64,000 nucleotides of DNA. Origin: Deltaproteobacteria bacterium (lineage in GTDB: Bacteria > Myxococcota > Kuafuiibacteriia > Kuafuiibacteriales > Kuafuiibacteriaceae). The stretch's first letter is position 1; each line of letters opens with the position of its first letter. The stretch spans positions 224,001 to 288,000 of the forward strand of contig JAVJQW010000041.1 of NCBI GenBank assembly GCA_040218735.1, in the 5' to 3' direction. The translations under genes were made by a program, and so were the position numbers. This document shows, piece by piece, positions 76-33,124 of this stretch. Below the pieces are notes generated by a model, which had not been told where the DNA came from, did not search any database, and saw only the letters and a list, made by a program, of their open reading frames with translations.

Positions 76-1182
76 TCAGAAGAGGTGCCTCCCCTCGATG
101 TAGAAGACCTGTTCCTCGTTCGAAAAACCCATGTCCGCGCGGACCACGATCAGGTCCTTCCAGCGCGCGCTGATCTCGAACCCCGCGCTGGGGCGTAGGC
201 GGTCGATCCAGTCGCGCACCGGTGTGTCGTCCGCCACGAGGGAGACGTCGACGAACCCGCCGATGCCGAAGCTCAGCAGGTCGAGGATCGCCGGGAAGTA
301 ATAGCGCAGCTCCTGGTTCGTCAGCGCCTTGTGTTTGCCGATGAAGCGCGACTCCGCGAAGCCGCGTTGGGTGAAGACGCCGCCGAGGCCGAAGGCGCTG
401 CGGCCGCCGCCGATGCGCGCGAGCTCGTAGAAAGGGACGTCGCCGCCGACCGACTCCACCATCAGGCGGCCCGCGTACACGAAGTCGGAGAACGGCGAGT
501 AGTAGAACGAGCCCTCCATCCCGATCCCTTGAAACGAAAACGCGCTCCCCAGCGGGCGGGTCGCGGCCTTGGCGTAGATCTGGAGGTACTCGCCGGAGGT
601 GGGGCGCAGCTCGTCGTCGCGACCGTCGTGCACGAGGGCGCCGAGCGCGATCAGGAGGTGCCCGCCGTCGAACCCGGTGGGGCGCTCCAGCGCGAGGCGC
701 GAGTCGTCGCGGTAGGTCGTGTGGGTGTACGCGAACGTCAGGCCGAAGCCCCAGCGCCAGGTGTCGTCGATGTCGTCGGAGAGGAACGACTGCATGCGCG
801 GTTCGGTGAGCCGGTACTGGTTGAACGGGTCGCCGGGTTCGTCGAGGCGCGTGACGTTGCCGACGCCGAAGTAGTTCGCGTCGTCGATGCGCAGGACCTC
901 GGTCAGCACGAACAGACGCAGCCCGAAGAAGGACGGCATGTCGAAGTAGAGCCAGTGCTCGTGCCGGTTCTTCGTGGAGTGGCGGAGCTTGACCTCCAGG
1001 AACCAGTCGAACTCGTCGTCGTCGCCGTACTCCTTGAGGATCGTGTGGACGCCGTACATGACGCCGATGTCGTTGTTGAACTTGAGCACCGGCACCGCGA
1101 GCCAGTCGAGGCCCTTGCCGGTGTCCGCAGAGGTCGAGGTTGCGGTCGCGGCCGCGAACAGAAGCAAGAGCGAAGCGGACAC
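76..1182 (-). CDS. Omp85/BamA-TamA-family outer-membrane beta-barrel (surface-antigen domain, no POTRA)
   Basis: Signal peptide; beta-strand pattern; 'PFYELARIGG...QRGFAESRF' matches the Omp85 loop-6 RGF motif; C-terminal Phe. Confidence 0.75.
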   Translation of the reverse strand: MSASLLLLFAAATATSTSADTGKGLDWLAVPVLKFNNDIGVMYGVHTILKEYGDDDEFDWFLEVKLRHSTKNRHEHWLYFDMPSFFGLRLFVLTEVLRIDDANYFGVGNVTRLDEPGDPFNQYRLTEPRMQSFLSDDIDDTWRWGFGLTFAYTHTTYRDDSRLALERPTGFDGGHLLIALGALVHDGRDDELRPTSGEYLQIYAKAATRPLGSAFSFQGIGMEGSFYYSPFSDFVYAGRLMVESVGGDVPFYELARIGGGRSAFGLGGVFTQRGFAESRFIGKHKALTNQELRYYFPAILDLLSFGIGGFVDVSLVADDTPVRDWIDRLRPSAGFEISARWKDLIVVRADMGFSNEEQVFYIEGRHLF

Positions 1183-1188
1183 GATGGC

Positions 1189-2205
1189 TCAGTCGAGGGA
1201 GGTCCCCAGGAAGAGGATGAGCGCGCTGCTGGGGTTCACGATCGCGCCGACCTGACCGGTGTTGCGACCCCACTCGGCGCCGATGCGGAGGCGCTCGCGC
1301 CAGTGTGCGTTGAAGCCGAGCCGGAACGCGACCGCGATGTCGTCGCGGGTGGAGGCGTTCGGGTCGATCAGATCCCCCGCGAGGAAGGGCTCCACTTCGA
1401 AGTCCTCGACGATCTCGAACCGCCGGCCGACCACGCCTCGCGCCGTGAACATCGTGGCGTCCAACCCCGTCTCCAACCCCGTCGCGCTCAGGAGTTTCAC
1501 GCGGCCGAGCTGCACCTCGCCCGCGGCGTACCAGCCCTTGCGATCGTAGGACACGAACACCGCCGCGAAGTTCCCGCGGCGATCGTCGGTCGCCGCGCCG
1601 CGCCGCGAGTAGCCGGTGACGGCGACGTAGAGCTTCTTCGCGAGGCGGAGGCGTACGAGCGCCGCGAGGTCCTCGGTGATCTCGTCGCCCTGCGGCCCGT
1701 ACGCGCCGAGCTGCACGTCGGGTTTGAGCGGGAGTGACTTGTCGCGCCACCGCACCCGCGCGCCGAACTTTCGACGCCCGAAGCCGAGGCGGTCACTCAC
1801 CACCTCGGACACCAACCCGCGCGTGAGCACCGGCATTCGCCAGCGGCTTTCCAGCTCGAGCACGCCGAACGGCGCCTTGTGCTGACCGACCCGGACGCTG
1901 AGCTCCTTGGTGGGCATCACCTGCAGATAGGCGTCGGCGAGGTCGGCGTTGGCGCCGCCGAAGTCGGGTTCGATGTCGACGCGGATCCAGTCGCCGTAGC
2001 TCAGGCGGGTCTTGAGTCGCGCGCGCTGCAGGTCCGACGACCAGCGCGTCTCGCCGCCGTCCGGGCGCCGGCCGCGACCGCGGATGTAGAGCTGGCCACC
2101 GAAGTCGATCGCGAAGCCTTCGTCGGCGACGGTCGACGATCGAATCTCGAAGGCGGATGCGGTCGCGGGGGTGAGGAGGGCGAAGAGCACCAACAGCGCG
2201 CGCAC
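1189..2205 (-). CDS. Outer-membrane porin, OprO/OprP (phosphate-selective porin)-like
   Basis: Start moved to GTG 2205, overlapping the upstream TAG; signal peptide MRALLVLFALLTPATASA; 'LQRARLK', 'LADAY', 'VRVGQHKAPFG.E' motifs of this porin class. Confidence 0.7.
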   Translation of the reverse strand: MRALLVLFALLTPATASAFEIRSSTVADEGFAIDFGGQLYIRGRGRRPDGGETRWSSDLQRARLKTRLSYGDWIRVDIEPDFGGANADLADAYLQVMPTKELSVRVGQHKAPFGVLELESRWRMPVLTRGLVSEVVSDRLGFGRRKFGARVRWRDKSLPLKPDVQLGAYGPQGDEITEDLAALVRLRLAKKLYVAVTGYSRRGAATDDRRGNFAAVFVSYDRKGWYAAGEVQLGRVKLLSATGLETGLDATMFTARGVVGRRFEIVEDFEVEPFLAGDLIDPNASTRDDIAVAFRLGFNAHWRERLRIGAEWGRNTGQVGAIVNPSSALILFLGTSLD

Positions 2206-2900
2206 TACAGGTCCACCTCGTGCTGCCCGACGACGAGCGCGACCTTCTGGTTCCCGTTTTTCTCGCGCACGGCTTCCATCAGCTTCTGACCTTCGGACTC
2301 GTCCTTGAGGACGATGGCGTAGACCGCCTCCTGGAGCACGCCGCCGCTGACGGTCTCGGTGGAGATCAGCCGGAAGTCGGCGAGGTAACGCTCGAAGACG
2401 TCGAGGAAGAGGCGGTCGAGGTCTTGGTCGGCGGGGATGCGGACACGGAGGATGCGCTCCGTGATGCGTTTGTCGAAGAAGTCGAGCTTGAACATCAGCA
2501 GCGCGACGGCGCACAGCGCCACGGTCGCGAACGCCGCGAGCGCGTAGAAGCGCGTGCCGCACGCCATGCCGATGGCCATCACGAAGAACACGAAGCCGAC
2601 GTCGCGCGTCTCCTTCACGGCGTTGCGGAAGCGGACGATCGACAGCGCGCCGACCAGCGAGAACGCTCGCGCGAGGTTCGAGCCGATGATCAGCATGATG
2701 ATCGCGACGATCATTCCCAGCATCACGAGCGTCTGCGTGTACGACTGCGAGTAGGACGTCCCGCGGTGGGTCGCGCGGTAGGTGAGGCCGACGAGCGTCG
2801 AGAGCGCGAAGCTGAGCGCGAGGACGATCGCGACGTCGGCGAGCGTGAACGCCGTCGTCAGATCCTGGAACCGCTCCATCTCCTTGAGTAGCTCGTCCAT
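2205..2900 (-). CDS. DUF4956 family membrane protein
   Basis: 'IGSNLARAFSLVGALSIVRFR', 'D.GF.F..MAIGMACG'; several TM helices plus a soluble C-terminal domain. Confidence 0.9.
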   Translation of the reverse strand: MDELLKEMERFQDLTTAFTLADVAIVLALSFALSTLVGLTYRATHRGTSYSQSYTQTLVMLGMIVAIIMLIIGSNLARAFSLVGALSIVRFRNAVKETRDVGFVFFVMAIGMACGTRFYALAAFATVALCAVALLMFKLDFFDKRITERILRVRIPADQDLDRLFLDVFERYLADFRLISTETVSGGVLQEAVYAIVLKDESEGQKLMEAVREKNGNQKVALVVGQHEVDL

Positions 2901-2963
2901 ACCTTCTCGCTCCCGGGCTCAGCCGCTTCGATACGACGCAACCGAGCCAGCCCCAAGCAGTTT

Positions 2964-3680
2964 CTACGACGCCTCCTGCAGCCGCGCGAGCCCGGCGCAG
3001 TACTTACTGACGCGTGTGAGCTGGCAGCCGTGGCGCGTGAGCATCCGCGTAACCCACAGCGGGACGGCCTCGTCCGCCTTCACCTCCAGGATGACGCGGT
3101 CGGGCGGAGCGAAGAGTCGATCGCGCATCCCCTCGAGCAGCCCGTGGTCGGGGGCGCGCACCGACAGCGCGCGGTCGAAGGTGATGCGCAGCCCGGGCTC
3201 GTAGGTGCCGCCGATCCATGCTTCGCGCAGATAGGAGATCACGCAGGCGGGCTCGAGGTGGAGCATTCGCGCGAGGTACAGCACCTCCGAGAGGACCTCG
3301 CGATCGTCGGCGTCTTCGCCCTCGGGCAGCTCGTGGCGTTCGATGAGATCCGTCGCGGCGCGCAACGAGGTGCGAACCCGACGTTTCTGCACGGTGCGGT
3401 TGATGCGTTGTTTGATCTCCAGCGCGATCTTCGAATCCATCGACGCCGCAGCGTGCCCGTAAGTTCTTACGCGAACCTTGCGGCGGTACTTGATGCCCTC
3501 GACCTTCGAACGGAAACACACGAAGTCGGGGGAGTCGTAGTACAGGCTCGTGACTCGGTAGACGCCGTCGGCTCCGTAGGGATCGAGCGTCATGTTCACG
3601 GCGAGGTCTTCGGTCAGAGCCTTCGCGACCGCGTCGTCGATGACGAACTTGAGCTCGAACCGATTGAAGCGGCGCTTCAC
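2964..3680 (-). CDS. VTC-domain (polyphosphate polymerase, CYTH/TTM fold) protein
   Basis: RFELKF, SLYYD, RRKVRVRTY, LEIKQR, Y.REA, LRITFD, ILEVK and SKY motifs. Confidence 0.9.
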   Translation of the reverse strand: MKRRFNRFELKFVIDDAVAKALTEDLAVNMTLDPYGADGVYRVTSLYYDSPDFVCFRSKVEGIKYRRKVRVRTYGHAAASMDSKIALEIKQRINRTVQKRRVRTSLRAATDLIERHELPEGEDADDREVLSEVLYLARMLHLEPACVISYLREAWIGGTYEPGLRITFDRALSVRAPDHGLLEGMRDRLFAPPDRVILEVKADEAVPLWVTRMLTRHGCQLTRVSKYCAGLARLQEAS

Positions 3681-4180
3681 GGGACGGTCTCGACGCGCAC
3701 CGCATTGCGGCGCTTCTTCTTGGGGAAGCGGAGCTCGATGAGTTGCGGGAAGCGGTCGTCGGGCGCCGTGAAGACGAACGGCGTGTCGGGCGTCGCTTCA
3801 CCTTTGGCCTTGGTCTTCCCCGCGCGTACCCGCACGCGGACGTCCTCGCGCGCGTGCACGCGGACCGTCTTGGGATCCGCAGCGCTGCGGCGGATGAGAT
3901 AGGCGAACTTGGCGTCGATGTGGCCGCGGTCGTTCGGGCTGATGATGCCGAAGCTGCGCCCCTCGACGAGGTTGTCCGCGAGGGGCGGGTGGCGGCGCAA
4001 GGCGTCTTGCAAGAGGCGCCGCTCGTCGGCGTCGAGTCGACCGCGGGCGCCGGACTCCAGGTCGATCGTGATCTGCCACGCGGCGTCGAGCGGCGGGGTG
4101 GCGGCCGCCCAGGCGAAGAACGCGACGACGCCGACCGCGACGAGGATCAGGTAGACGAAGCCGACGCTGGGGCGGGTCAC
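3677..4180 (-). CDS. Hypothetical membrane-anchored protein
   Basis: N-terminal TM helix; 4-bp overlaps with both neighbours. Confidence 0.7.
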   Translation of the reverse strand: MTRPSVGFVYLILVAVGVVAFFAWAAATPPLDAAWQITIDLESGARGRLDADERRLLQDALRRHPPLADNLVEGRSFGIISPNDRGHIDAKFAYLIRRSAADPKTVRVHAREDVRVRVRAGKTKAKGEATPDTPFVFTAPDDRFPQLIELRFPKKKRRNAVRVETVP

Positions 4181-6924
4181 GGTGCACCGCCCATCAGCGC
4201 GCCGACCCGGGCGTCGATCGTCGCGTAGTCCTCGATGCGGAGCACGTCGCGCCGGAGCCCGTCGAGGCGCCCGTCAACGGGCCAGGTCGTCGAGGCGCGC
4301 GCGCGGAGCTGCGTGTTCTTCGCGCGCTTCGTGACGCGGCCGCAGTCGACGGCGTGGACGTCGTCGGCGTCGATCGTGCTCGGTGCGTCGTAGTGCACGT
4401 CGCGTCGGTTGGTCTTGAGCGCAGTCTTGGTGCGGTAGATCAACGAGCGGGCGATGCGTGCGTTCGACGCGTTCTTCGCGAGGACGCCGACCTTCGCGCC
4501 GACGATCACACTCCCCACGACGCGGATGTCGGACTCTTCGCCCGCGGAGATCGCGTTGCTCTTGCAGTGAACGAGCAGCGCGTCGGTCAAACGGATCTCC
4601 GCGTTCATCAGGTCGAGGCATTCGTCTTCGGCGCCGAGTACGACCAGGCCGCGGACGTCCGCGGTGACGTGTTCGAGGTCGACCGCGTCGGTCGACGCGC
4701 GGACGATCGTGACCTCGTGCAGGGCGAGGCGGTCGACGTAGGTCGCGTGCAGCGCGTCGTCGGTGGTGGACTCGCGGATGCGCACGTCTTCGACGGTGAT
4801 GTCGTGGGTGTCGAGGACGGCGAGGGAGCCGCGGATCTCCGCGCCGTCGATGCGCGAGCCCGCGGTGGCGGGGCCGCGCAGGACGACGGGGCCGCCCGAG
4901 ATGTGGATCGGCCGCGTGGCGTCGCCGCGGAGCTCGACGCGGCCGAGGAACGTGACGTCGCCGTCGACGGTGAGCTCGGCGCCTGGCTCGACGACGACCG
5001 TGGTGTGGGCGCCGTAGCGTCGGTCGAGCCGCGCGGCGCCGGCGATGCGCACGGTTTGGGGCCGGGGCGCGGCGTCGAAGCGCCAGGGGTGCGGCGACGT
5101 CTCGCCCGGAGCGAAGCGCGGCACGGTCGTGATCGGGTCGCCTGTGTTGGACGCGAGCGCGACGTCGTCCGCGGTGATGCGCCGCCGCGTCGACGCGCCG
5201 GTGACTCGGCTCTCGAGCTCGACGTCGACGGCTTCGATCGTCTGACGCGGCGCACGGACGAAATAGCGGAAGACCCGCGGTCGGCGCTCCAGGCGAACGG
5301 AGCCCGCGACATCTTCGTCGCCGACCGCAACCAGGGTTGCGGCGGAGGTGAGGTGTGCCCGCGCCCAGGGACGAACCTCACCGACGCCCTCTGCGACGAG
5401 GGGGTCCGCGGGGCCGAGCGCGCCGTCGTCGTCCTCGTCGGCGTAGACCTCGAGCGCCACTTCGAGGCCGGGCGCGGTGAACGATAACACCTCGACCGAC
5501 TCCAGCCCGCCGACCTCGATCGCGACCGCGAACGCTTCGCCGGACGGCATCCCCGCGAAGCGCAGGCTGCGCGCTTCGAGGTGATCGCGGAGGAAGCGGC
5601 TGCGGCGCTCGTACGTCGACAGCTCCGCGCGCGACGCGGTCAGCCACCGGCCGACGTTCATCGGTCGCAGCATGAAGCGGTGGAACCGGGACGCGCGCGG
5701 GAGCAGCTTGTACGCGTCCCAGTACGGGTCGGCGGCGAGCTCGGGGAGGAGCGCTTCGAAGCGTCGGTCGACGTCGGCGCGCACCCGCGCGACGGACGCG
5801 GCGCCGTCGAGGAGCCGGTAGACGTGGCGGTCGCGCCTCCACAGGTAGTCGGGGAGCGCCTTGAGCCGGAGCTGGATCGGGCTCTCGGCGCGGTTGACGA
5901 ACGGCTCGTGGGAGAACGCGCGGAAGTCGCGCGCGATGGGCTCGAAGCGCTCGCGGTAGGGGTCGTAGTAGAGTTTCTGGTTCGAGTCGAAGTCGTGCTG
6001 GTCGCCGCCGAACACGACGTCGAGCGCGTCGAACAGCGCGAAGCGATCCAGATCGACATGGTCCGCGGCGTAGGTTGCGAAGTCGGCGTGCGAGGCGCCC
6101 CTGACCTTGGCGAGGAGCGTGTCGATCTCCGCGTAGTCCTCGCGCTGGGCGGCGGACGCCGCGCCGAACTTGCTCCACCCTCCGTGTGGTTCCTTCGCGC
6201 TCTTCTTCGCGAAGTCACCGGAGTACAGGCTCCCTGGCATGCGCGCCTGCCGGCGGAGCAGGCCTTCGTCGGGCTGTGCTTCGAACCGATACACACCGAG
6301 GTCCGCGTTGTTCACGCGCACGCGCACCGCGTGGAAGGCGGGGGAGAGGAGCCCGCCGTCACGGGCGAGGTCGAGGATGATCGACTCCTCGAACCCGAAC
6401 GGCGTCACGCCATTGAGGAGGTTGAACACCCGCACGCCGTCGACGAGGTCGCCCTTGTCGGTGCGCACCTTCATCGACTTCTGCACGCCGAGCGCGTGCC
6501 AGTGGCGGCGGCCCTGGTGCCGAACCTGCACGTCGTGAATGCGGCCGTCCTTGCGGAGCGTCGCGTCGACGTAGCGGCGTTTCTTCGTAGAGCGCGCGTC
6601 GGCCTCCAGCGTGGTGAGCGCGTCGGGGGCGAGCGCGAGCTCGAAGGTCGGGAGGGTCGACGGGTTCGGCGCGCCCGGGAGACGTAGGCGGCGAAGCTGC
6701 CGCGTGAGCTCGTCGTGCGCGAAGATCTGGAGCAGCTCGGCGTCGAGGGTGACGTCCGCCTTCACGTGGCGGCGGTACCTCTCGAAGCGGGCGTAGGCGG
6801 ACCAGGCGGACCAGGCGACGACGAAGACGATGGGGAGGCTGAGGATCAGGGCGGAGGACAGGCTGACGCGGAGGATCCGACGGCCCAGGCGCAGCGGCCG
6901 GCGTCGTATCGCGAAGGTCCTCAA
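4177..6924 (-). CDS. CotH-family kinase with C-terminal right-handed beta-helix domain, N-terminal membrane anchor
   Basis: QKSMKV, 'VRVNNADLGVYRFE', 'H.FDSNQKLYYDP..RFEPI..D' CotH-like motifs; beta-helix repeats (DDALH, DAVDL, DECLDL, NAISAGE). Start uncertain: TTG 6924 chosen, ORF open to 7020. Confidence 0.8.
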   Translation of the reverse strand: MRTFAIRRRPLRLGRRILRVSLSSALILSLPIVFVVAWSAWSAYARFERYRRHVKADVTLDAELLQIFAHDELTRQLRRLRLPGAPNPSTLPTFELALAPDALTTLEADARSTKKRRYVDATLRKDGRIHDVQVRHQGRRHWHALGVQKSMKVRTDKGDLVDGVRVFNLLNGVTPFGFEESIILDLARDGGLLSPAFHAVRVRVNNADLGVYRFEAQPDEGLLRRQARMPGSLYSGDFAKKSAKEPHGGWSKFGAASAAQREDYAEIDTLLAKVRGASHADFATYAADHVDLDRFALFDALDVVFGGDQHDFDSNQKLYYDPYRERFEPIARDFRAFSHEPFVNRAESPIQLRLKALPDYLWRRDRHVYRLLDGAASVARVRADVDRRFEALLPELAADPYWDAYKLLPRASRFHRFMLRPMNVGRWLTASRAELSTYERRSRFLRDHLEARSLRFAGMPSGEAFAVAIEVGGLESVEVLSFTAPGLEVALEVYADEDDDGALGPADPLVAEGVGEVRPWARAHLTSAATLVAVGDEDVAGSVRLERRPRVFRYFVRAPRQTIEAVDVELESRVTGASTRRRITADDVALASNTGDPITTVPRFAPGETSPHPWRFDAAPRPQTVRIAGAARLDRRYGAHTTVVVEPGAELTVDGDVTFLGRVELRGDATRPIHISGGPVVLRGPATAGSRIDGAEIRGSLAVLDTHDITVEDVRIRESTTDDALHATYVDRLALHEVTIVRASTDAVDLEHVTADVRGLVVLGAEDECLDLMNAEIRLTDALLVHCKSNAISAGEESDIRVVGSVIVGAKVGVLAKNASNARIARSLIYRTKTALKTNRRDVHYDAPSTIDADDVHAVDCGRVTKRAKNTQLRARASTTWPVDGRLDGLRRDVLRIEDYATIDARVGALMGGAP

Positions 6925-7007
6925 CGGCCGGAGGATCCCCCGCGGGAGGTCTTGCGTGCAATTCGAAAGTCGACACACCGCGAACGAAGCGCGCAACATC
7001 GCCGGCC

Positions 7008-8792
7008 GTGACCAACCCACTCGTTTCGGACCGCGACGTCGCCTTCATCCTCGAGCACACGATCGATCTCGATCGCCTCTTGGAGTTGCCCTACTTCGAG
7101 GACCACTCGCGGGAGACGGTGACGCTCTACCTCGAGAACGCCCGGCGCCTCGCGCGGGAGGTCCTCGCGCCCGGCTACAAGGTGACCGACGAGGAGGCGC
7201 CGAACCTCGTGGACGGCAAGCTGCCGCTGCACCCCGAGATGCACAAGGCGATCGACGCGCTCGTCGAGCTCGGCGTCGTCACGGCGACGCGCCCCTACGA
7301 CCTCGGCGGCGCGCAGCTCCCGGCTGCGATCGCCGTGCTGGCGGAGTCCTACCTGATGGCGGGGAACCTCTCGGCGACGGCCGGCGTCGGCCTCACCACC
7401 GGCGCGGCGCGGTTGATCGAGACGTTCGGCTCCGAGGAGCTCAAGCGGAAGTTCATGGATCGAATGTATTCGTGTGAGTGGACCGGGACGATGGCGCTCA
7501 CGGAGCCGCAGGCGGGGAGCAGCCTCACCGACGTCGAGACGGTGGCGAAGCCGACCGACGACGGCCACTACCTGATCCGCGGCAGCAAGGTGTTCATCAG
7601 CGGCGGCGACCACGACGTGCGCGACAACATCGTGCACCTGACGCTCGCGCGCATCGAAGGCGCGCCGGCGGGCATCAAGGGGGTGTCGCTGTTTGCGATC
7701 CCGAAGCGCCGGGAAGAGGGCGGCGGGTTGGTCGACAACGACTGCACGACGGCCGGCGTGTTCCACAAGCTCGGGTGGCGTGGGCTGCCGAGCATCGCGT
7801 TGAACTTCGGCGAGAACGAGGACTGCCACGGGTGGCTCGTCGGTGAGCCCCACCGCGGCATCAAGTACATGTTCCAGATGATGAACGAGGCGCGGCTGAT
7901 GGTCGGCGTCTCGGCGATGGCGACGGCGTCGGTCGCGTATCAGCAGTCGCTCGTGTACGCGAACGAGCGTCCGCAGGGGCGGCGTCTGGGCGACAAGGAT
8001 CCGTCGAAGCCGCAGATTCCTATCGTAGAGCACGCGCAGGTGCGCCAGCTGTTGCTGCGGCAGAAGGCGATCGTCGAGGGCGGCATGGCGTTGGTCGCGA
8101 AGACGGCGTACTTCGCGGACCTCTCCGAGCACCTCGCGGACGAGACCGAGCGCCGCGAGGCGTTCCTGCTGCTCGACTTGCTCACGCCGATCGCGAAGAG
8201 CTTCCCCGCGGAGCGTGGGTTCGAGTCGAACACCCTCGCGATCCAGGTGCACGGTGGCTACGGCTACACGAGTGAGTACCTGCCGGAGCTGTTCTGGCGC
8301 GACCAGAAGCTGAACTCGCTGCACGAGGGCACGACGCAGATCCAGGGGCTCGACCTGTTGGGCCGCAAGGTCGTGCAGGACGCGGGCAACGCGCTGCGCC
8401 TCTTCGCGGGGCTGGTGGAGACGTCGGTCGCGAAAGCGCGCGAGGCCGGCGTCGAGGGCGCGTGGTGCGACAACGTCGCGACGGCGATGGGGGAGATCGT
8501 CGAGCTCACCATGCAGCTCGGCGCGAAGGGCATGTCCGGCGATCTCGACGGGATGCTCCTGCACAGCGCGAACTATCTGGAGGCGTTCTCGAACCTCGTC
8601 GTCGGGTGGGTTTGGTTGGAGCAAGCCACCGCTGCGAAGCCGAAGGCGGGCTCGGGCGACGGCTTCTACGAGGGCAAGCTGCGTGCGGCGCAGTACTGGC
8701 TCACGTCGGAGCTGCCGAAGAACACACTCCTCGTTCGCCTCGCGAAGGACGCCGAGAGCTCCTTCGCTCAGATGCAGTCGGACTGGTTTTAG
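7008..8792 (+). CDS. Acyl-CoA dehydrogenase (long, about 600-aa type)
   Basis: MALTEPQAGS, GSKVFISGG, MFQMMNEAR, IQVHGGYGY, HEGTTQIQGLDL. Confidence 0.95.
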   Translation: MTNPLVSDRDVAFILEHTIDLDRLLELPYFEDHSRETVTLYLENARRLAREVLAPGYKVTDEEAPNLVDGKLPLHPEMHKAIDALVELGVVTATRPYDLGGAQLPAAIAVLAESYLMAGNLSATAGVGLTTGAARLIETFGSEELKRKFMDRMYSCEWTGTMALTEPQAGSSLTDVETVAKPTDDGHYLIRGSKVFISGGDHDVRDNIVHLTLARIEGAPAGIKGVSLFAIPKRREEGGGLVDNDCTTAGVFHKLGWRGLPSIALNFGENEDCHGWLVGEPHRGIKYMFQMMNEARLMVGVSAMATASVAYQQSLVYANERPQGRRLGDKDPSKPQIPIVEHAQVRQLLLRQKAIVEGGMALVAKTAYFADLSEHLADETERREAFLLLDLLTPIAKSFPAERGFESNTLAIQVHGGYGYTSEYLPELFWRDQKLNSLHEGTTQIQGLDLLGRKVVQDAGNALRLFAGLVETSVAKAREAGVEGAWCDNVATAMGEIVELTMQLGAKGMSGDLDGMLLHSANYLEAFSNLVVGWVWLEQATAAKPKAGSGDGFYEGKLRAAQYWLTSELPKNTLLVRLAKDAESSFAQMQSDWF

Positions 8793-10501
8793 TGCGCCGA
8801 CTCCTGCTTACGCTCGCGCTCCTCGTTCCGTCGTCCGCCGAGGCCAGCGGCCTCGACGTCGCGAAATGGCTCCGTCGCCCTGGCGTGAAGCTCCTCGCGG
8901 TCGAGTTCTACGCGACGTGGTGCAAGCCGTGTATGGAGGCCGTGCCCCAGTGGAAGGCGCTCCACGAGCGGTACAAGAAGGACGGCCTGCGTCTGGTCGT
9001 CGTCGCGACGCAGGACCCGCAGGGCGGCTGCGTGAACCCGGGCTGGAACCCGGACGACGTGGTGTGTGACGACGAGGGCCTCCTCGCGGAGCGCTTCGGC
9101 GCCAACTCACTCCCGTCGGCGTTCCTGTGGACTTGGCAAGGTGGCTTGCTCGTCCGGCAGAAACACGTCGACGAGGTGGAGCGCAGCGTCGAGCGGTGGC
9201 TGAAGACGACGCCGCGGGTGGACGTCGGGGTCGAGGGGCTCCCGCGCGGCGTCGGCATCAACCGCGGCGCGCTCGAAGACCTGGTGCGCGCGCGGCTGCG
9301 CGACGAGGACAAACTGATCGTCGTCGCGAGCGAGGCGGAGCGCAAACAGCTCGACGTCATCCGGCGGCGGGCGTTGTCCGAGCGCTACGACCAGTCGTCG
9401 GCGTGTGAGATCGGGATGGAGCTGTCCGCGAACTCACTCCTGCAAGTCTCCGTGACGTCCGGGCGCCGGAAGCTCCTGCGCCTCGGGCTGCTCTCCGCGG
9501 AGAAGGGGTGCCTGATCGGTAGCGCGGTGGTGGACTGGAACGCCGCGAAGCCGGCCGTCGCGGTGGCGGAGGGCGTCGCCGAGCTGATGGCGAAGCTGCG
9601 CGCTCCGCCGCAGATGCCGTGGCTGAAGGACGCGTCGGGTCGCCAGACGAAGGCGCTGTCGTCGTACGAGCGCATGGCGCGGGAGCTCGAAGCGGAGAAG
9701 GCGCGGTCGAAGCGCCTCGAGGAGGCGTGGCGCGTGGTGAAGGACTTCGCGGCGGCGCGGACGATCGACCGGGCGCGGCGCGCGTCGGCGGTCGAGGGGT
9801 TCCTGAACGACTTCCCGAAGAACAACCCGCACGAAGGCGAGGCCCGGACGCTGCTCGCGACGCTGCGGCCCAAGGCGTCTCCGCCGCCTCCGTCTCCGCC
9901 TCCGCCTCCGCCGCCGAAGGCGGTGGCCTCGGGCGACCGGGACTTCGACGGGATCCGCGACGCCGACGACGTGTGCCCTACGCTCGCGGAGGATCGCGAC
10001 GGGTTCGAGGACGAGGACGGCTGCCCCGATCCCGACAACGATCGCGATGGCATCGCGGACACGGTGGACAAGTGCCCGGGGGCCCCCGAGACCAAGAACG
10101 GGTTCGAGGACGAAGATGGGTGTCCCGACCAGCCCAAGGTGGTGCGGGTCACGGGCCGCCGCATCGAGATCCTCGACAAGGTGTACTTCAAGCGGGGGCG
10201 GGCGACGATCCTGAAGAAGAGCCTGCCCACGCTCGACGACCTCGCGCGGACCCTGAAGAGCAACCCGCAGATCCGGAAGCTGGAGATCTCCGGGCACACC
10301 GACAACCGCGGCGCTTCGCGACTCAACAAGCTGCTCTCCGAACGCCGCGCGAAGGCCGTCCGCGTGTACCTGATGAAGCGCGGTGTCTCCGGCGATCGTC
10401 TCGTCGCCGTCGGCTACGGCGAAGAGAAGCCGATCGCCTCCAACGCCACGGAGGAAGGACGCGAGCGCAACCGGCGCATCGAGTTCTTCGTCCGCGACTG
10501 A
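8792..10501 (+). CDS. Exported thioredoxin(TlpA)-like + TSP3 Ca-binding repeats + OmpA-C peptidoglycan-binding protein
   Basis: Start moved to GTG 8792 (overlaps TAG); signal peptide; FYATWCKPC; Pro linker; DRDFDGI.D..D.CP repeats; GHTD...LSERRA...NRRIEF. Confidence 0.85.
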   Translation: MRRLLLTLALLVPSSAEASGLDVAKWLRRPGVKLLAVEFYATWCKPCMEAVPQWKALHERYKKDGLRLVVVATQDPQGGCVNPGWNPDDVVCDDEGLLAERFGANSLPSAFLWTWQGGLLVRQKHVDEVERSVERWLKTTPRVDVGVEGLPRGVGINRGALEDLVRARLRDEDKLIVVASEAERKQLDVIRRRALSERYDQSSACEIGMELSANSLLQVSVTSGRRKLLRLGLLSAEKGCLIGSAVVDWNAAKPAVAVAEGVAELMAKLRAPPQMPWLKDASGRQTKALSSYERMARELEAEKARSKRLEEAWRVVKDFAAARTIDRARRASAVEGFLNDFPKNNPHEGEARTLLATLRPKASPPPPSPPPPPPPKAVASGDRDFDGIRDADDVCPTLAEDRDGFEDEDGCPDPDNDRDGIADTVDKCPGAPETKNGFEDEDGCPDQPKVVRVTGRRIEILDKVYFKRGRATILKKSLPTLDDLARTLKSNPQIRKLEISGHTDNRGASRLNKLLSERRAKAVRVYLMKRGVSGDRLVAVGYGEEKPIASNATEEGRERNRRIEFFVRD

Positions 10502-23397: not shown

Positions 23398-25722
23398 TCA
23401 CGCGCGGCGGCGGCGGCGCGTGATCCCCAGCGCGACGATCAACATCAACACCCATCCGTCGGTGCTCCCTGGAACGTTGGTACAGCCAGACGGCTCCGGC
23501 TGTACGGGCTTCGGCTCGACGCGCATCGACAGCGGCTGCACGTCCGTCTGACCCGACTCGTCCTCCACGCGCACGACGAAGGCGAACAACCCGTCCTCGG
23601 TGGGCGTGCCCGAGATCGTCCCGTCCGTCGAGAGCGCGAGGCCGTCCGGGAGCTCACCCGCCCCTGCGAGCACCGACCACGTGGGCGTACCGTCGGCGTT
23701 GGCGACGCCGAGGTCGACGAAGACCTCGGTGCCGACCTCCGCCTCGCGCAACGTGCGCGTCGTGATGACGAAATCACGATCCGTCGCGACCTCGACCAAG
23801 AACACCGCGGTGTCGATGACGTCCGTGGCGTCCTGCACGCGCACGGTGATCGGGAAGAGACCGACGCGCTGAGGCACGCCGCACAGCGCGCCGTTCGACG
23901 CGAGCTCGAGCCCCGGCACGCCACCGTCGACCGCGCTCCACCGGTACGGCTCGAGGCCGCCCTCCGCGATCAGCTCCACGTCGGACGTCTCGCAGTACGA
24001 CTCCCCGACGACCGCCGACGGGAGCGGCTGCGAGAGGATCTGCACGGCGTCACTCGCGCGGAGGACGTGCAGCGTCAGGAGCTTCTGCGCGGTGACGTCG
24101 AGGTCGTCCTTCACCTCGAAGGTGATGTCGAAGGCACCCGCCGCCTGCACCGTGCCGCAGAGCAACCCTTCTTCGGAGAACGTCACGCCCGGCGGCAGCG
24201 TGGTGACCGCACGCCAGACGTACGGCGTCTGTCCGCCGACGGCGACGAGCGCGTGGCAGAACGAACGGCCCACGAAGACCGCGGGGAGGGAGGTCGTCGC
24301 AAACGCCGGCGAGACGGTCGGGCTCAGCACACGCATCGCGAAGGTGCGATCCGCGTGGGCCGTTCCGCTGTTCGCGCGCAGCGTGACCTCGTAGCGACCC
24401 TCGTTCGTCGGGGTGCCGGTCAGGAAGCCGTCCGGGTCGAGCGTGATGCCAGGCGGGAGCGCGCCGCTCGCGATCGACCACGTGACCGGGAGCGGACCGC
24501 CCAGGGCGTACAGGCCGAGCTCGTAGGGTACGCCGACCGTCGCCGCGTCGAGGTGATCGGTGGTGATGACGATCGTCGCCGAGTAGATCGGCACCTTTGG
24601 CCCGACCGCGAGGTTGTTCGTCTCCTGCACCTCCTCGACGACGTCGTCGCCGTCGAGACGCAGGAGCACGCGATACTCGCCCGGCAGGACGGAGCCGGGG
24701 ATGCGAACGACGTCGACGCCGTAGTCGAACGTGTCCTGGGCGACCGACGTCGCGAAGCTCGCGAGGGGGACGTCCAAGGGATCGAGGCGATCGTCGCGCG
24801 ACAGGAAGTAGTCGTAGGGCACGGCGGGCGCGTCCGCGGGACCGATGTTCGAGATGATGCGCGTGATCGCGAGCTCCTCACCCGCGGCCGCCGCGGTCGC
24901 GGTGCCCACGACCTCCGCGGTGAGGTCCGGCACCGGCCAGAGGATCTGCACGGCGGGGCGAGCGGGGAGGCCGTTGTTGTTCACGTTCGACTCCAGCAGG
25001 TCGGCGAAGATGTCCGCGAGCGCGCCGATGTACCAAGCGCCCGTCGACGTGAACGTCCCCGGGAGCACGAGGGTGTCGGTGAACGTGATGGTCTGGCCCG
25101 CCGGGATCGAGACCGGGCCGAACGTCTGCAGCTCGGTGTCGAAGATGCGGATGCGCGCGTCGTCGGAGACGTAGTAGCGATACGAGAAGTCGTTGGCGTC
25201 GATGGTGCTGTCGTTCTGAAGCGTGATCGACGCCGCGAACGGCCGGCCGAGGAAGACAAACGGGTCGGCCGTGACGCTCGTGACGCGGATGTCCGGTCCG
25301 AGGATCGTGAGCAGCGACGAGGACGCCACGCTGTTGTTCGTCTCGTCCGCTTCGGCGACCAGGCCGTCCGGGTCGATCACCGCGAACAGATTCACGGGCA
25401 CACCCGGGACGACCCCGCGGCCCGGCTCGACCGTCAGTGGAAAAGTCACTTCGAGTATCTCGGCGCCCGGGAAGAACACGTAGCCGGTGTAGAGCACCGG
25501 ATCTTGGGTGTCGAAGAGCGGGTCGCCGGACGCGACGATCGCCACCGGCACGTTGCCGGTGAACGGCGCGCCGACCGAGCTGAACGTCGCGGTGACGTCG
25601 ATCGTATCGCCGAGCTCGACGGACGTCGGGGACACCGGGAGGAAGGAGACCGCGGTGAAGTCCGGGAGGGCGGGGCCGCTCTGAGCGATCGTGGCGAGGC
25701 AGAAGGCCAGCGGGAGCTGCAT
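23398..25722 (-). CDS. Cell-surface CARDB + putative-Ig repeat protein with MYXO-CTERM-like tail
   Basis: Three CARDB-like units ending E..ETNN/ESNVNNN; LP.G.TL...G..TGTP Ig repeats; SGC-TM-RRRRR tail. Confidence 0.85.
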   Translation of the reverse strand: MQLPLAFCLATIAQSGPALPDFTAVSFLPVSPTSVELGDTIDVTATFSSVGAPFTGNVPVAIVASGDPLFDTQDPVLYTGYVFFPGAEILEVTFPLTVEPGRGVVPGVPVNLFAVIDPDGLVAEADETNNSVASSSLLTILGPDIRVTSVTADPFVFLGRPFAASITLQNDSTIDANDFSYRYYVSDDARIRIFDTELQTFGPVSIPAGQTITFTDTLVLPGTFTSTGAWYIGALADIFADLLESNVNNNGLPARPAVQILWPVPDLTAEVVGTATAAAAGEELAITRIISNIGPADAPAVPYDYFLSRDDRLDPLDVPLASFATSVAQDTFDYGVDVVRIPGSVLPGEYRVLLRLDGDDVVEEVQETNNLAVGPKVPIYSATIVITTDHLDAATVGVPYELGLYALGGPLPVTWSIASGALPPGITLDPDGFLTGTPTNEGRYEVTLRANSGTAHADRTFAMRVLSPTVSPAFATTSLPAVFVGRSFCHALVAVGGQTPYVWRAVTTLPPGVTFSEEGLLCGTVQAAGAFDITFEVKDDLDVTAQKLLTLHVLRASDAVQILSQPLPSAVVGESYCETSDVELIAEGGLEPYRWSAVDGGVPGLELASNGALCGVPQRVGLFPITVRVQDATDVIDTAVFLVEVATDRDFVITTRTLREAEVGTEVFVDLGVANADGTPTWSVLAGAGELPDGLALSTDGTISGTPTEDGLFAFVVRVEDESGQTDVQPLSMRVEPKPVQPEPSGCTNVPGSTDGWVLMLIVALGITRRRRRA

Positions 25723-31453: not shown

Positions 31454-33124
31454 ATGGCCAAGCTCACGCCAGCCGCCAAGGGTCTCATCACCATCACCAT
31501 CCTCGCCATCGCCGGCGCCGCCGCATGGCACCTCGGGGTGAAGGACATGATCGCCGGTAACGCCGGCGGCGGAGGGGACCCGCCCCCGAACAACAACAAC
31601 ACCGGGGGCAACACCGACGTCGCGACCAACAACGGCGGCGACGGTGCGCTCGGGAGCGCGAACAACCCGCTGAAGGTGTCGATCGTGAGCTTTCACGGCT
31701 ACGCGCCGGCGCTGGTCGCGAACGGCAAGTCGCTGAAGACGCAGCCGGGCTCGATCTACGCGAAGAAGGGGATCAACGTGGAGTTCGTCATCCAGGACGA
31801 CATCCCGACGCTCTCCACGATCTTCACGTCGAACGTCGCGCAGTGCGCGTGGCGTACGAGTGACTTCTGGGCGCAGGAGCACCCCAACCTCAGGAACGCG
31901 GGGCTCGACGGCAAGGCGATCGTCGTCGTCGACAACACGCAGGGCGGCGACGCCGTCATCGCGCGCGACCCGGCGATGAAGCGGATCGAGGACCTCGCGG
32001 GGCGCTCGGTCGCGCTCCTGCAGTACACGCCGTCGGACGGCATGGTGATCGACGCCGTCGACAACTCGTCGTTGTCGGCGCGCAAGAAGAAGTCGGTGAA
32101 GTACGTCTACGTGAACGCGGACGAGGGCACCGCCGGGGTGCGAGCGGCGTTCGAGAGCGGCAACGTCGACGCCGCGGCGCTGTGGGATCCGGACCTGTCG
32201 CTCGCGCTGAAGAACACCCCCGGCGCGCACGTCATCTACTCGACGAAGACCGCGACGAACCTGATCTACGACGTCATGGTCTGCAACAAGAAGTACCTGG
32301 ACGACCCGGCGAACGAGGCGGCCTTCTCCGGCTTCGTCGCGGGCTGGCTCGAGGGTGTGGAGGTCGCGAACAACAACCACGACGAGGCGCTCGACGCGCT
32401 CGTGAAGACGGAGGAGTTCTTCGCGCTGTTGAAGCAGAAGGAAGGCGACGCGTTCGTGAAGGGGCTGTTCAAGAACCTGGTGTGGACGGGCCTGAAGGAC
32501 AACGCCCGCATCCTGGGGCTCTCCGGTCAGACCAACCACTACGAGCGTGTCTACAAGCGCTTCGACATCATCTACCGCGGCGCGGGCGCGCTGGCGGATC
32601 CGAACTCGCCGGTCATCAACCCGCAGGAGTCGTTCGACTACCGCTTCGTGAAGAAGCTGTTGGCGTCGAACCCCACGGCGCAGGCCGAGGCCAAGAAGCC
32701 CGAGTACACCTTCACGGCGAACGCGGCGGTCGAGGCGGCGAAGAAGCCGGCGAGCCTCACGAAGCCGGTGACGGTCGGCTTCAAGTCGGGCTCGGCGGAT
32801 CTCACGAAGCGCGCGCAGAAGACGATCGACGAGGAGATGGTGCCGCTGATCGAGAACAACGGCTCGGCGTACTTCGAGGTCTCGGGTAACACGGACTCCA
32901 CGGGCAGCAAGGCCGTGAACATGAAGCTGTCGAAGAAGCGCGCGCAGGCGGTCGTCGACTACCTCGTCGCGGAGTGGGAGTTCGGGAAGGATCGCTTCGT
33001 CGTCGTCGGGTACGGCCCGTCGCGCCCGCTGTGCAACGAGAAGAATCCGAAGGAAGAGGACCTGAGCCTCGAGGACTGCCGCGCGGCGAACCGCACCACG
33101 CGCCTCGCCGTCCTCGCGCGCTGA
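31454..33124 (+). CDS. NMT1/SsuA-type ABC substrate-binding domain fused to OmpA-C domain
   Basis: N-terminal TM; DNTQGGDA.IAR, DL.G..VA, VDAAALWDP; C-terminal GNTD.TG...NMKLSKKRA.AV...NR. Confidence 0.88.
   Translation: MAKLTPAAKGLITITILAIAGAAAWHLGVKDMIAGNAGGGGDPPPNNNNTGGNTDVATNNGGDGALGSANNPLKVSIVSFHGYAPALVANGKSLKTQPGSIYAKKGINVEFVIQDDIPTLSTIFTSNVAQCAWRTSDFWAQEHPNLRNAGLDGKAIVVVDNTQGGDAVIARDPAMKRIEDLAGRSVALLQYTPSDGMVIDAVDNSSLSARKKKSVKYVYVNADEGTAGVRAAFESGNVDAAALWDPDLSLALKNTPGAHVIYSTKTATNLIYDVMVCNKKYLDDPANEAAFSGFVAGWLEGVEVANNNHDEALDALVKTEEFFALLKQKEGDAFVKGLFKNLVWTGLKDNARILGLSGQTNHYERVYKRFDIIYRGAGALADPNSPVINPQESFDYRFVKKLLASNPTAQAEAKKPEYTFTANAAVEAAKKPASLTKPVTVGFKSGSADLTKRAQKTIDEEMVPLIENNGSAYFEVSGNTDSTGSKAVNMKLSKKRAQAVVDYLVAEWEFGKDRFVVVGYGPSRPLCNEKNPKEEDLSLEDCRAANRTTRLAVLAR

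Follow-up and report, generated by a model that had tools for sequence, protein, structure and literature searches.

A diderm, porin-linked form of the Vtc4-like/DUF4956/CotH gene set in Myxococcota as a candidate envelope phosphate module

Genes encoding a CotH protein, a 'polyphosphate polymerase' of the VTC family and a DUF4956 protein are known from Gram-positive pel loci, where they have been described as adjoining accessory genes (10.1101/768473), and the same trio corresponds to SIR_1592-1594 of Streptococcus intermedius, where mutants of the DUF4956 and CotH homologs were reported to show lower Pel and aggregation, the mechanism being left open by the authors (PMC12345266). In addition, a VTC/'tubulin'/CotH neighbourhood is tabulated for NELoc-2 of Clostridium perfringens (PMC2879425). 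Here, we analysed these families in a 64,000-nucleotide (nt) stretch, hereafter the window (positions 224001-288000 of contig JAVJQW010000041.1, assembly GCA_040218735.1), of an 11.6-Mb genome with ~68% GC, whose named relatives in public records are Myxococcota, mostly Polyangiaceae metagenome-assembled genomes (MAGs) and Byssovorax. Six minus-strand genes at 76-6924 encode, in order, a CotH protein, an unannotated protein of 167 amino acids (aa) that we call X167, a VTC-domain protein, a DUF4956 protein, a porin and an Omp85-family barrel, and the module they contain is a diderm, porin-linked and X167-bearing form of the known but unexplained Vtc4-like gene set. It is quite possible, just short of what we would call probable, that five of the six genes are one version of a widespread envelope phosphate module in which polyphosphate is made, passed to the periplasm and used by CotH, with the porin as exit or entry.

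Compared with the pel accessory genes as described, the window holds the same three families side by side, with a CotH protein that is extracytoplasmic by prediction and a DUF4956 protein that joins an MgtC-like transmembrane (TM) part to a cytoplasmic domain. The window differs in being diderm, in its TM-anchored CotH with a beta-helix and in its additional X167 and OprP/OprO-like porin, and neither pelDEA(DA)FG nor DUF4832 was present among the genes scanned at 7-41 kb of the window or downstream. Among the papers found, there was no published description of a diderm form with porin or of an export or donor mechanism; their figures and supplements may show more architectures. As in the yeast VTC complex (Vtc4/Vtc3/Vtc1; 3g3q, 7ytj, 8i6v), the catalytic tunnel domain, homologous over its full length and with all substrate and metal residues, has a dedicated membrane partner, which here is encoded next door. 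In contrast, yeast Vtc4 has its catalytic domain fused to an SPX domain and a C-terminal 3-TM domain, whereas the window VTC is a free 238-aa protein without either; the window DUF4956 (4 TM, MgtC-like) shows no detectable sequence similarity to the Vtc TM domains, and the window system goes together with proteins of the periplasm and the outer membrane.

From CotH to Omp85, the successive junctions are a 4-nt overlap, a second 4-nt overlap, a 63-nt gap, a 1-nt overlap and a 6-nt gap, so the arrangement given by the initial annotation (six co-oriented genes at 76-6924 with overlaps or gaps of at most 63 bp) was recovered as described. The hidden Markov model (HMM) scans that it had suggested for VTC, DUF4956, CotH, Porin_O_P and Omp85 placed all five named families above their Pfam gathering cut-offs. 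Moreover, the GC content at third codon positions (GC3) was 0.81-0.95 in the called frames (0.92 for the porin), which tells real frames apart from the many spurious open reading frames (ORFs) of DNA with 68% GC. Chance co-orientation of six unrelated genes was considered and rejected in view of the conservation data presented below.

The VTC-domain protein (2964-3680, minus strand) matched Pfam VTC with an E-value of 6.6e-44 over positions 1-234 of the 235-position profile, i.e., over its full length. While the single sequence gave no match in the PDB, a profile built from 28 homologs, which was required for this comparison, matched yeast Vtc4 (3g3q_A, E 2.1e-17) over residues 3-235, again full length, and the inactive Vtc2 and Vtc3 more weakly (E 4e-10 and 4e-7). 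According to 10.1101/2023.01.27.525886, the triphosphate ligands of Vtc4 are K200, R264, R266, K281, Y359, R361, S457 and K458 and its Mn ligand is E426, K458 being the sole ligand not shared by Vtc2/3. Residue counts along the profile alignment mapped K200, R264, R266, K281, Y359, R361, E426, S457 and K458 to K11, R70, R72, K90, Y150, R152, E199, S225 and K226 of the window protein, and all of these except Y150, the K458 equivalent included, were invariant in 28/28 sequences. The protein has neither a TM segment nor an SPX domain, is cytoplasmic by prediction and comes from the only VTC gene of the whole genome. Judged by homology, it is a Vtc4-like triphosphate-tunnel enzyme with intact catalytic residues, and the Vtc4-type catalytic domain proposed at the outset indeed retains the full Vtc4 ligand set. 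Note that VTC genes broken up into two or three reading frames were seen elsewhere, in Byssovorax cruenta, a Streptomyces and a Latescibacterota MAG (L075:488-1188, L122:8074-8754 and L066:8222-8939), as was a porin homolog split in two frames (G112:C3:258415-259402); these split genes may be frameshifts or assembly errors.

The neighbouring DUF4956 inner-membrane protein (2205-2900, minus strand, 231 aa) matched its Pfam family at 1.6e-15, together with a weak MgtC match (0.0017) that reached ~2e-5 in homologs from another family of the phylum. TM helices are predicted at residues 20-38, 58-76, 101-119 and 121-139, followed by a soluble C-terminal third. The motif R90-F91-R92...D100, between the second and third helices, was invariant, as were G111, A113 and G115. 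In one locus (L020:1453-2700), a barrel of the Alginate_exp family is encoded convergently to the DUF4956 gene.

Conservation was assessed in 40 loci of the phylum, fetched around VTC homologs, and in a wider set comprising the best 80 of >585 DUF4956 loci from all phyla, found with a DUF4956 alignment and distributed across Myxococcota, Chloroflexota, Streptomyces, candidate phyla and an archaeon; genes in these other loci were called with a crude GC3-based finder, whose calls served solely to choose the proteins submitted to Pfam. VTC directly precedes DUF4956 in 79 of the 80 wider loci, which span many phyla, and the two genes are adjacent in 38 of the 40 phylum loci, a near-invariable adjacency that agrees with their initial description as a pair. 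The order CotH-X167-VTC-DUF4956 was found in 16/40 phylum loci, and the CotH subfamily of the window in 22/80 wider loci, while the flanking gene in non-myxobacterial loci was usually another CotH. In a family-level search of 301 genomes of the phylum, CotH occurred in 154 and VTC in 133: both were present in 130 genomes, VTC only in 3, CotH only in 24 and neither in 144, tallies that include the unpublished genome G195, without which 129 genomes have both. Note that a single VTC protein used as query was less sensitive (46/301 against 133/301 genomes). The co-occurrence of VTC, DUF4956 and CotH in many bacteria, stated in the initial annotation, was seen within the phylum genomes and across phyla, and on gene content the shared core is VTC-DUF4956, with CotH as a near-constant genomic companion.

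The CotH kinase-fold/beta-helix protein (4177-6924, minus strand; 915 aa from the TTG at 6924, with alternative starts at 6999 and 7020) matched Pfam CotH at 3.9e-11, with 43.5 bits against a cut-off of 23.8. Its 13-homolog profile matched Bacillus cereus CotH (5jd9_A, E 5.6e-15), and the fold of this spore-coat kinase was aligned over chain positions 2-325 with the equivalents of the catalytic Asp and Asn kept, i.e., the catalytic-loop Asp D311 in 13/13 and N315 in 11/13 homologs. D228Q and D251A are described as inactive mutants of Bacillus subtilis CotH (PMC7821199); their equivalents in the window protein are D311 and D333, the step from B. subtilis to B. cereus numbering being deduced from an equal 23-residue spacing. 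Unlike Bacillus CotH, the window protein is predicted to be periplasmic, membrane-anchored and fused to a beta-helix, and the D251 equivalent is Ser in 8/13 members of its subfamily. Indeed, eight K/R residues precede a single TM helix at 20-38, which predicts an N-in/C-out topology and a membrane-anchored, periplasmic CotH domain, and the anchoring outside the cytoplasm that had been assumed for it is borne out to this extent. The C-terminal part (residues ~600-896) forms a predicted right-handed beta-helix (Atlas features 0.95; structure TM-score 0.72-0.83); in some matching Atlas clusters, most members carry both CotH and Beta_helix, while Pfam reported on this C-terminus NosD alone, at E 0.25. 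The genome contains four more CotH genes (C42:491025-492029, C42:374457-375356, C21:100889-101674 and C56:146356-147168) for its one VTC gene. Should these CotH enzymes need the module, several of them would share a single VTC-DUF4956 pair.

X167 (3677-4180, minus strand) belongs to no Pfam or NCBIfam family. Its AlphaFold2 (AF2) model, with a predicted local distance difference test (pLDDT) score of 92, shows an N-terminal TM helix, three helices and an eight-strand beta-sandwich, for which Foldseek returned nothing meaningful (TM-score <=0.34), VIA-align gave jelly rolls resembling the RetS sensor or carbohydrate-binding modules with Z no higher than 6.3, below the ~8 taken as noise level, and the Atlas held no usable match. 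An HMM of 15 members, run against 1.84 billion proteins, retrieved 225 representatives at E<=1e-3, whereas a word-seeded search found 9 proteins only; among the 150 matches listed, all were 85-223 aa long and mostly ~170-200 aa. X167 lies between CotH and VTC in the 16 ordered phylum loci mentioned above and, at the equivalent place, in 17/80 wider loci. The initial annotation had counted this gene among the six, which stands, and had left it unnamed; judging from its recurrent position, X167 is a conserved member of the cassette in this lineage.

The porin (1189-2205, minus strand, 338 aa with a signal peptide) matched Pfam Porin_O_P at 6.5e-6 (26.1 against 20.9 bits), a match that covers only positions 27-124 of the 370-position profile, and its family profile matched no solved chain of the PDB by sequence. 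Its AF2 model (pLDDT 82.6) is a 16-strand structure in which the most conserved residues sit on an internal loop at 111-144, and R61, R63, K110, R129, R145 and R307 are conserved basic residues. The two best Foldseek matches were Pseudomonas aeruginosa OprP (2o4v_A, E 2e-14, TMq 0.74) and OprO (4rjw, 1.4e-13, 0.74), followed by general porins at 0.6-0.7, in line with the Porin_O_P family first named for this protein. These phosphate- and pyrophosphate-specific porins belong to the same Pfam family and are the closest structures, but with only ~10% identity; moreover, the window porin is encoded with a synthesis module, whereas OprP and OprO serve Pho-regulated uptake.

Porin homologs beside VTC occur in three gene orders. 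A homolog is present in 8 of the 16 CotH-X167-VTC-DUF4956 loci of the phylum, where it is placed upstream of CotH, and in 13/80 wider loci, in three of which (L056-L058) it lies downstream of DUF4956, as in the window. Among the 149 VTC places in the matches listed, with G195 left out, a porin homolog was found at <=6 kb for 92, 86 of them at <=1.8 kb, which represents 77/128 genomes. This linkage recurs across genomes in several gene orders, and the earlier assumption that the porin belongs with the VTC trio is well founded in this respect. In six loci, an unannotated lipoprotein family of 220-310 aa without Pfam match is encoded directly beside the cassette-type porin (L006:12836-13501, L044:8880-9557, L045:9714-10388, L056:6647-7582, L057:10758-11531 and L058:6635-7387); it takes the position held by Omp85 in the window and has no counterpart among the six window proteins. 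The 224-225-aa neighbours in L044 and L045 were considered as VTC or DUF4956 proteins and rejected, as they matched neither profile and belong to this lipoprotein family. Second porin modules that lack VTC were also seen, one in G040 (L045:7985-10388) with a porin, a DUF4956-like protein and the lipoprotein, and one in G083 (L044:6046-12535) with a porin, the lipoprotein and an LTD+PPDK_N protein. Both come after a He_PIG/CARDB protein and a pyruvate kinase, and a He_PIG/CARDB gene is also found in the window at 23398-25722.

Elsewhere in the phylum, other families encode an HlyD-type adaptor, a TolC-like OEP protein or both after VTC-DUF4956; among the 17 set-B loci with scanned flanks, this applies to 10, none of which has the porin. 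These loci share the core and an outer-membrane exit with the window and differ by a conduit of the tripartite-pump type, often with a PPDK_N lipoprotein instead of CotH-X167. The replacement of the porin by an HlyD-type adaptor plus a TolC-like channel argues that the product of VTC-DUF4956 crosses the envelope, and judging from these neighbourhoods, a trans-envelope conduit is a recurrent partner of VTC-DUF4956 in diderm hosts. The PPDK_N ATP-grasp proteins (670-1014 aa, with PPDK_N at the C-terminus) lie next to VTC-DUF4956 or the porin in 12 loci, and two of them carry a lamin-tail domain (L006:14621-17665, L013:6911-9205, L017:1530-3551, L018:13736-15916, L019:315-2636, L029:7237-9327, L033:7219-9471, L036:7075-9489, L037:10222-12252, L039:7443-9467, L042:7200-9476 and L044:9554-12535). 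A lipoprotein-type signal peptide was readable in most of 11 of their N-termini, four being obscured by over-extended gene calls; according to these signals, PPDK_N joins CotH as an exported 'ATP-type' fold with linkage to the module. The window genome itself has PPDK_N homologs elsewhere, of which the closest (G000:C43:26445-28502) shows 52% identity and contains 2 in-frame TGA. Finally, six loci of the phylum's largest sampled family (genomes mostly of 9-13 Mb) gave the combined pattern [CotH]-VTC-porin-(thymidylate-kinase-like, ~560 aa)-DUF4956; note that no single locus showed all five genes and that the Pfam match to Porin_O_P was found in L138 only. The thymidylate-kinase-like proteins (~560-616 aa, with an N-terminal P-loop) are encoded beside VTC and/or DUF4956 (L136:6213-7913, L137:5766-7616, L138:9805-11487, L139:9039-10736 and L141:9476-11158), and the window has no gene for such a protein.

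Our findings establish gene linkage, predicted topology, conserved residues and folds, from which we infer all the biochemical steps. In the proposed mechanism, the cytoplasmic VTC protein would act as a Vtc4-like tunnel polymerase that makes polyphosphate from ATP at the inner membrane face, and an oligomer of the four-TM DUF4956 protein would deliver the chain as it grows, or phosphoryl groups from it, into the periplasm. As the periplasm lacks ATP, polyphosphate would be the donor for CotH, and the anchored CotH/beta-helix protein, together with the anchored beta-sandwich protein X167, would use it on a glycan or protein acceptor, while the OprP/OprO-like porin of anion type would be the outer-membrane passage through which polyphosphate leaves or inorganic phosphate (Pi) and pyrophosphate (PPi) return. 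The mutant phenotypes reported for the S. intermedius DUF4956 and CotH homologs (PMC12345266) count in favour of such a scheme. Its generalised form, namely an ATP-independent extracytoplasmic phosphorylation in which a split VTC-DUF4956 threads polyphosphate out, CotH kinases and PPDK_N lipoproteins use it on envelope glycans or proteins, and the polymer or the products cross the outer membrane by anion porins or TolC-type ducts, is advanced tentatively, as a possibility that we consider rather doubtful.

Several observations weigh against the proposed mechanism. The triphosphate tunnel metalloenzymes (TTM) also include phosphohydrolases (PMC9582702), and conserved tunnel residues are therefore no proof of polymerase activity. 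With only four TM helices, the DUF4956 protein could not provide a polyphosphate channel without oligomerising, and its profile matched no chain among the solved structures at E<=10, those of the yeast Vtc complex included. The 24 CotH-bearing genomes without a VTC match, the complete CotH-X167-VTC-DUF4956 loci without a porin nearby (L007, L018, L020, L022 and L023) and the counts themselves, which overstate support because related genomes are not independent, point in the same direction. As regards the acceptor, no glycan-synthesis genes were found within 41 kb in the window (genes scanned at 7-41 kb and downstream). In addition, OprP and OprO are uptake channels, so that flow through the window porin could be in either direction, and the papers found report no activity for any module component. 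Lastly, the DFG-like column is D333 in the window and S in 8, D in 2, A in 2 and N in 1 of the 13 subfamily members; this metal-binding Asp is mostly lost, and these CotH proteins may not be ordinary kinases.

This loss agrees with an explanation by polyphosphate secretion only, through VTC-DUF4956 and a porin or TolC-like channel, with CotH binding, anchoring or processing the polymer or a glycan by other chemistry. Trans-envelope partners are present even where no CotH is adjacent (L028, L033 and L035-L037) and phytase-like proteins occur in L029 and L030, which also suits secretion, but 130 of the 133 VTC-bearing genomes have CotH as well, and the catalytic-loop Asp and Asn are kept, which would be unexpected for a mere binding protein; we regard this explanation as unlikely. 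Reversing the flow turns the module into a phosphate-scavenging device, in which Pi, PPi or polyphosphate would enter through the porin, be imported by DUF4956 and be hydrolysed or remodelled by VTC in the cytoplasm, while CotH would release or capture phosphate outside. Indeed, OprP and OprO are described as Pho-regulated uptake channels whose expression rises when phosphate is limiting (PMC9769906), the gene immediately after DUF4956 encodes a Na/Pi cotransporter-PhoU protein in one locus (L016:1882-3564), and the phosphohydrolases of the TTM family (PMC9582702) would fit a hydrolytic VTC. However, the Vtc4-specific Lys (K458 equivalent) is invariant in 28/28 sequences, HlyD/OEP partners are typical of export and not uptake, and CotH has a transferase fold, all of which make scavenging very unlikely. 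A regulatory role, in which an MgtC-like/ACT-type DUF4956 and VTC would sense or signal phosphate or energy status (e.g., short polyphosphate) and control CotH with no bulk export, is consistent with the weak MgtC similarity given above and with the description of the streptococcal homolog as an MgtC-like TM part plus an ACT domain (PMC12345266), but it leaves the recurrent outer-membrane conduits and the strict VTC-DUF4956 adjacency unexplained and appears quite improbable.

The remaining explanation extends the phosphate module to all six genes, as the initial annotation had done, so that polyphosphate, or whatever CotH produces, would pass the outer membrane by the Omp85 barrel together with the porin. 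The Omp85-family protein (76-1182, minus strand, 368 aa with a signal peptide) matched Pfam Omp85 at 3.9e-12 (46.8 against 24 bits) and, over its full length, the barrel-only NCBIfam family NF047779 with 190.5 bits, just below the cut-off of 200; the Pfam scan reported no POTRA family, which indicates a barrel-only form, and the sequence had no match in the PDB. Its co-orientation with the porin across the 6-nt gap and the same arrangement with an 8-nt gap in G108 (contig C446), a genome of the same genus, speak for its membership. G108 is nevertheless the only other case of porin-Omp85 adjacency: in G083, of the same family, a 52-53%-identical ortholog lies at 5.77 Mb, flanked by a TPR protein and a Crp-type regulator, whereas the cassette lies at 1.70 Mb; tblastn found no Omp85 match in the 40 phylum and 80 wider cassette loci; and elsewhere the unrelated lipoprotein adjoins the porin. 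Moreover, Omp85 proteins are known as protein insertases or translocases and not as solute channels. Involvement of all six genes is thus most improbable, and the inclusion of Omp85 in the system was not supported; by its distribution, Omp85 is probably a genus-level neighbour and not part of the machine. Paralogs with ~30% identity were found in 150/301 genomes. The small TPR protein by Omp85 in G083 (L047:7074-7613) gave a weak match (6.9e-6, under its cut-off) to TPR_Slam, the TPR of surface-lipoprotein assembly modulators, a hint that the barrel-only Omp85 may act on proteins and not on phosphate.

The five-gene phosphate module bears on two open questions, namely which donor serves exported kinase-fold enzymes where there is no ATP, and the coupling of a VTC-type synthase to export in bacteria. 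It is also common, with VTC in 133 of the 301 sampled genomes of the phylum. If the proposed mechanism is true, bacteria would have a new way to synthesise and export polyphosphate, chemical work in the envelope would have a new energy currency, and the pel-associated genes known from streptococci and clostridia, hitherto unexplained, would be accounted for. With the residues and partner proteins identified above, four or five proteins would suffice for a direct test.

Regarding the surroundings of the module, the operon ends with Omp85, beyond which lie a 94-aa ORF and a plus-strand gene resembling pectinacetylesterases, while on the upstream side an acyl-CoA dehydrogenase gene begins at 7008 in divergent orientation. 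The divergent intergenic region between the latter and the CotH gene (6925-7007, no strand, if CotH starts at 6924) is the presumed promoter region. No match to a sigma-70-type promoter was found at the locus, which is uninformative in this phylum, and terminators were not enriched (4 found versus 3.1 expected). Further along the window, two plus-strand genes encode OmpA-family proteins (8462-10501 and 31454-33124), the former with a thioredoxin-like region and a weak match to thrombospondin type 3 repeats upstream of its OmpA domain.

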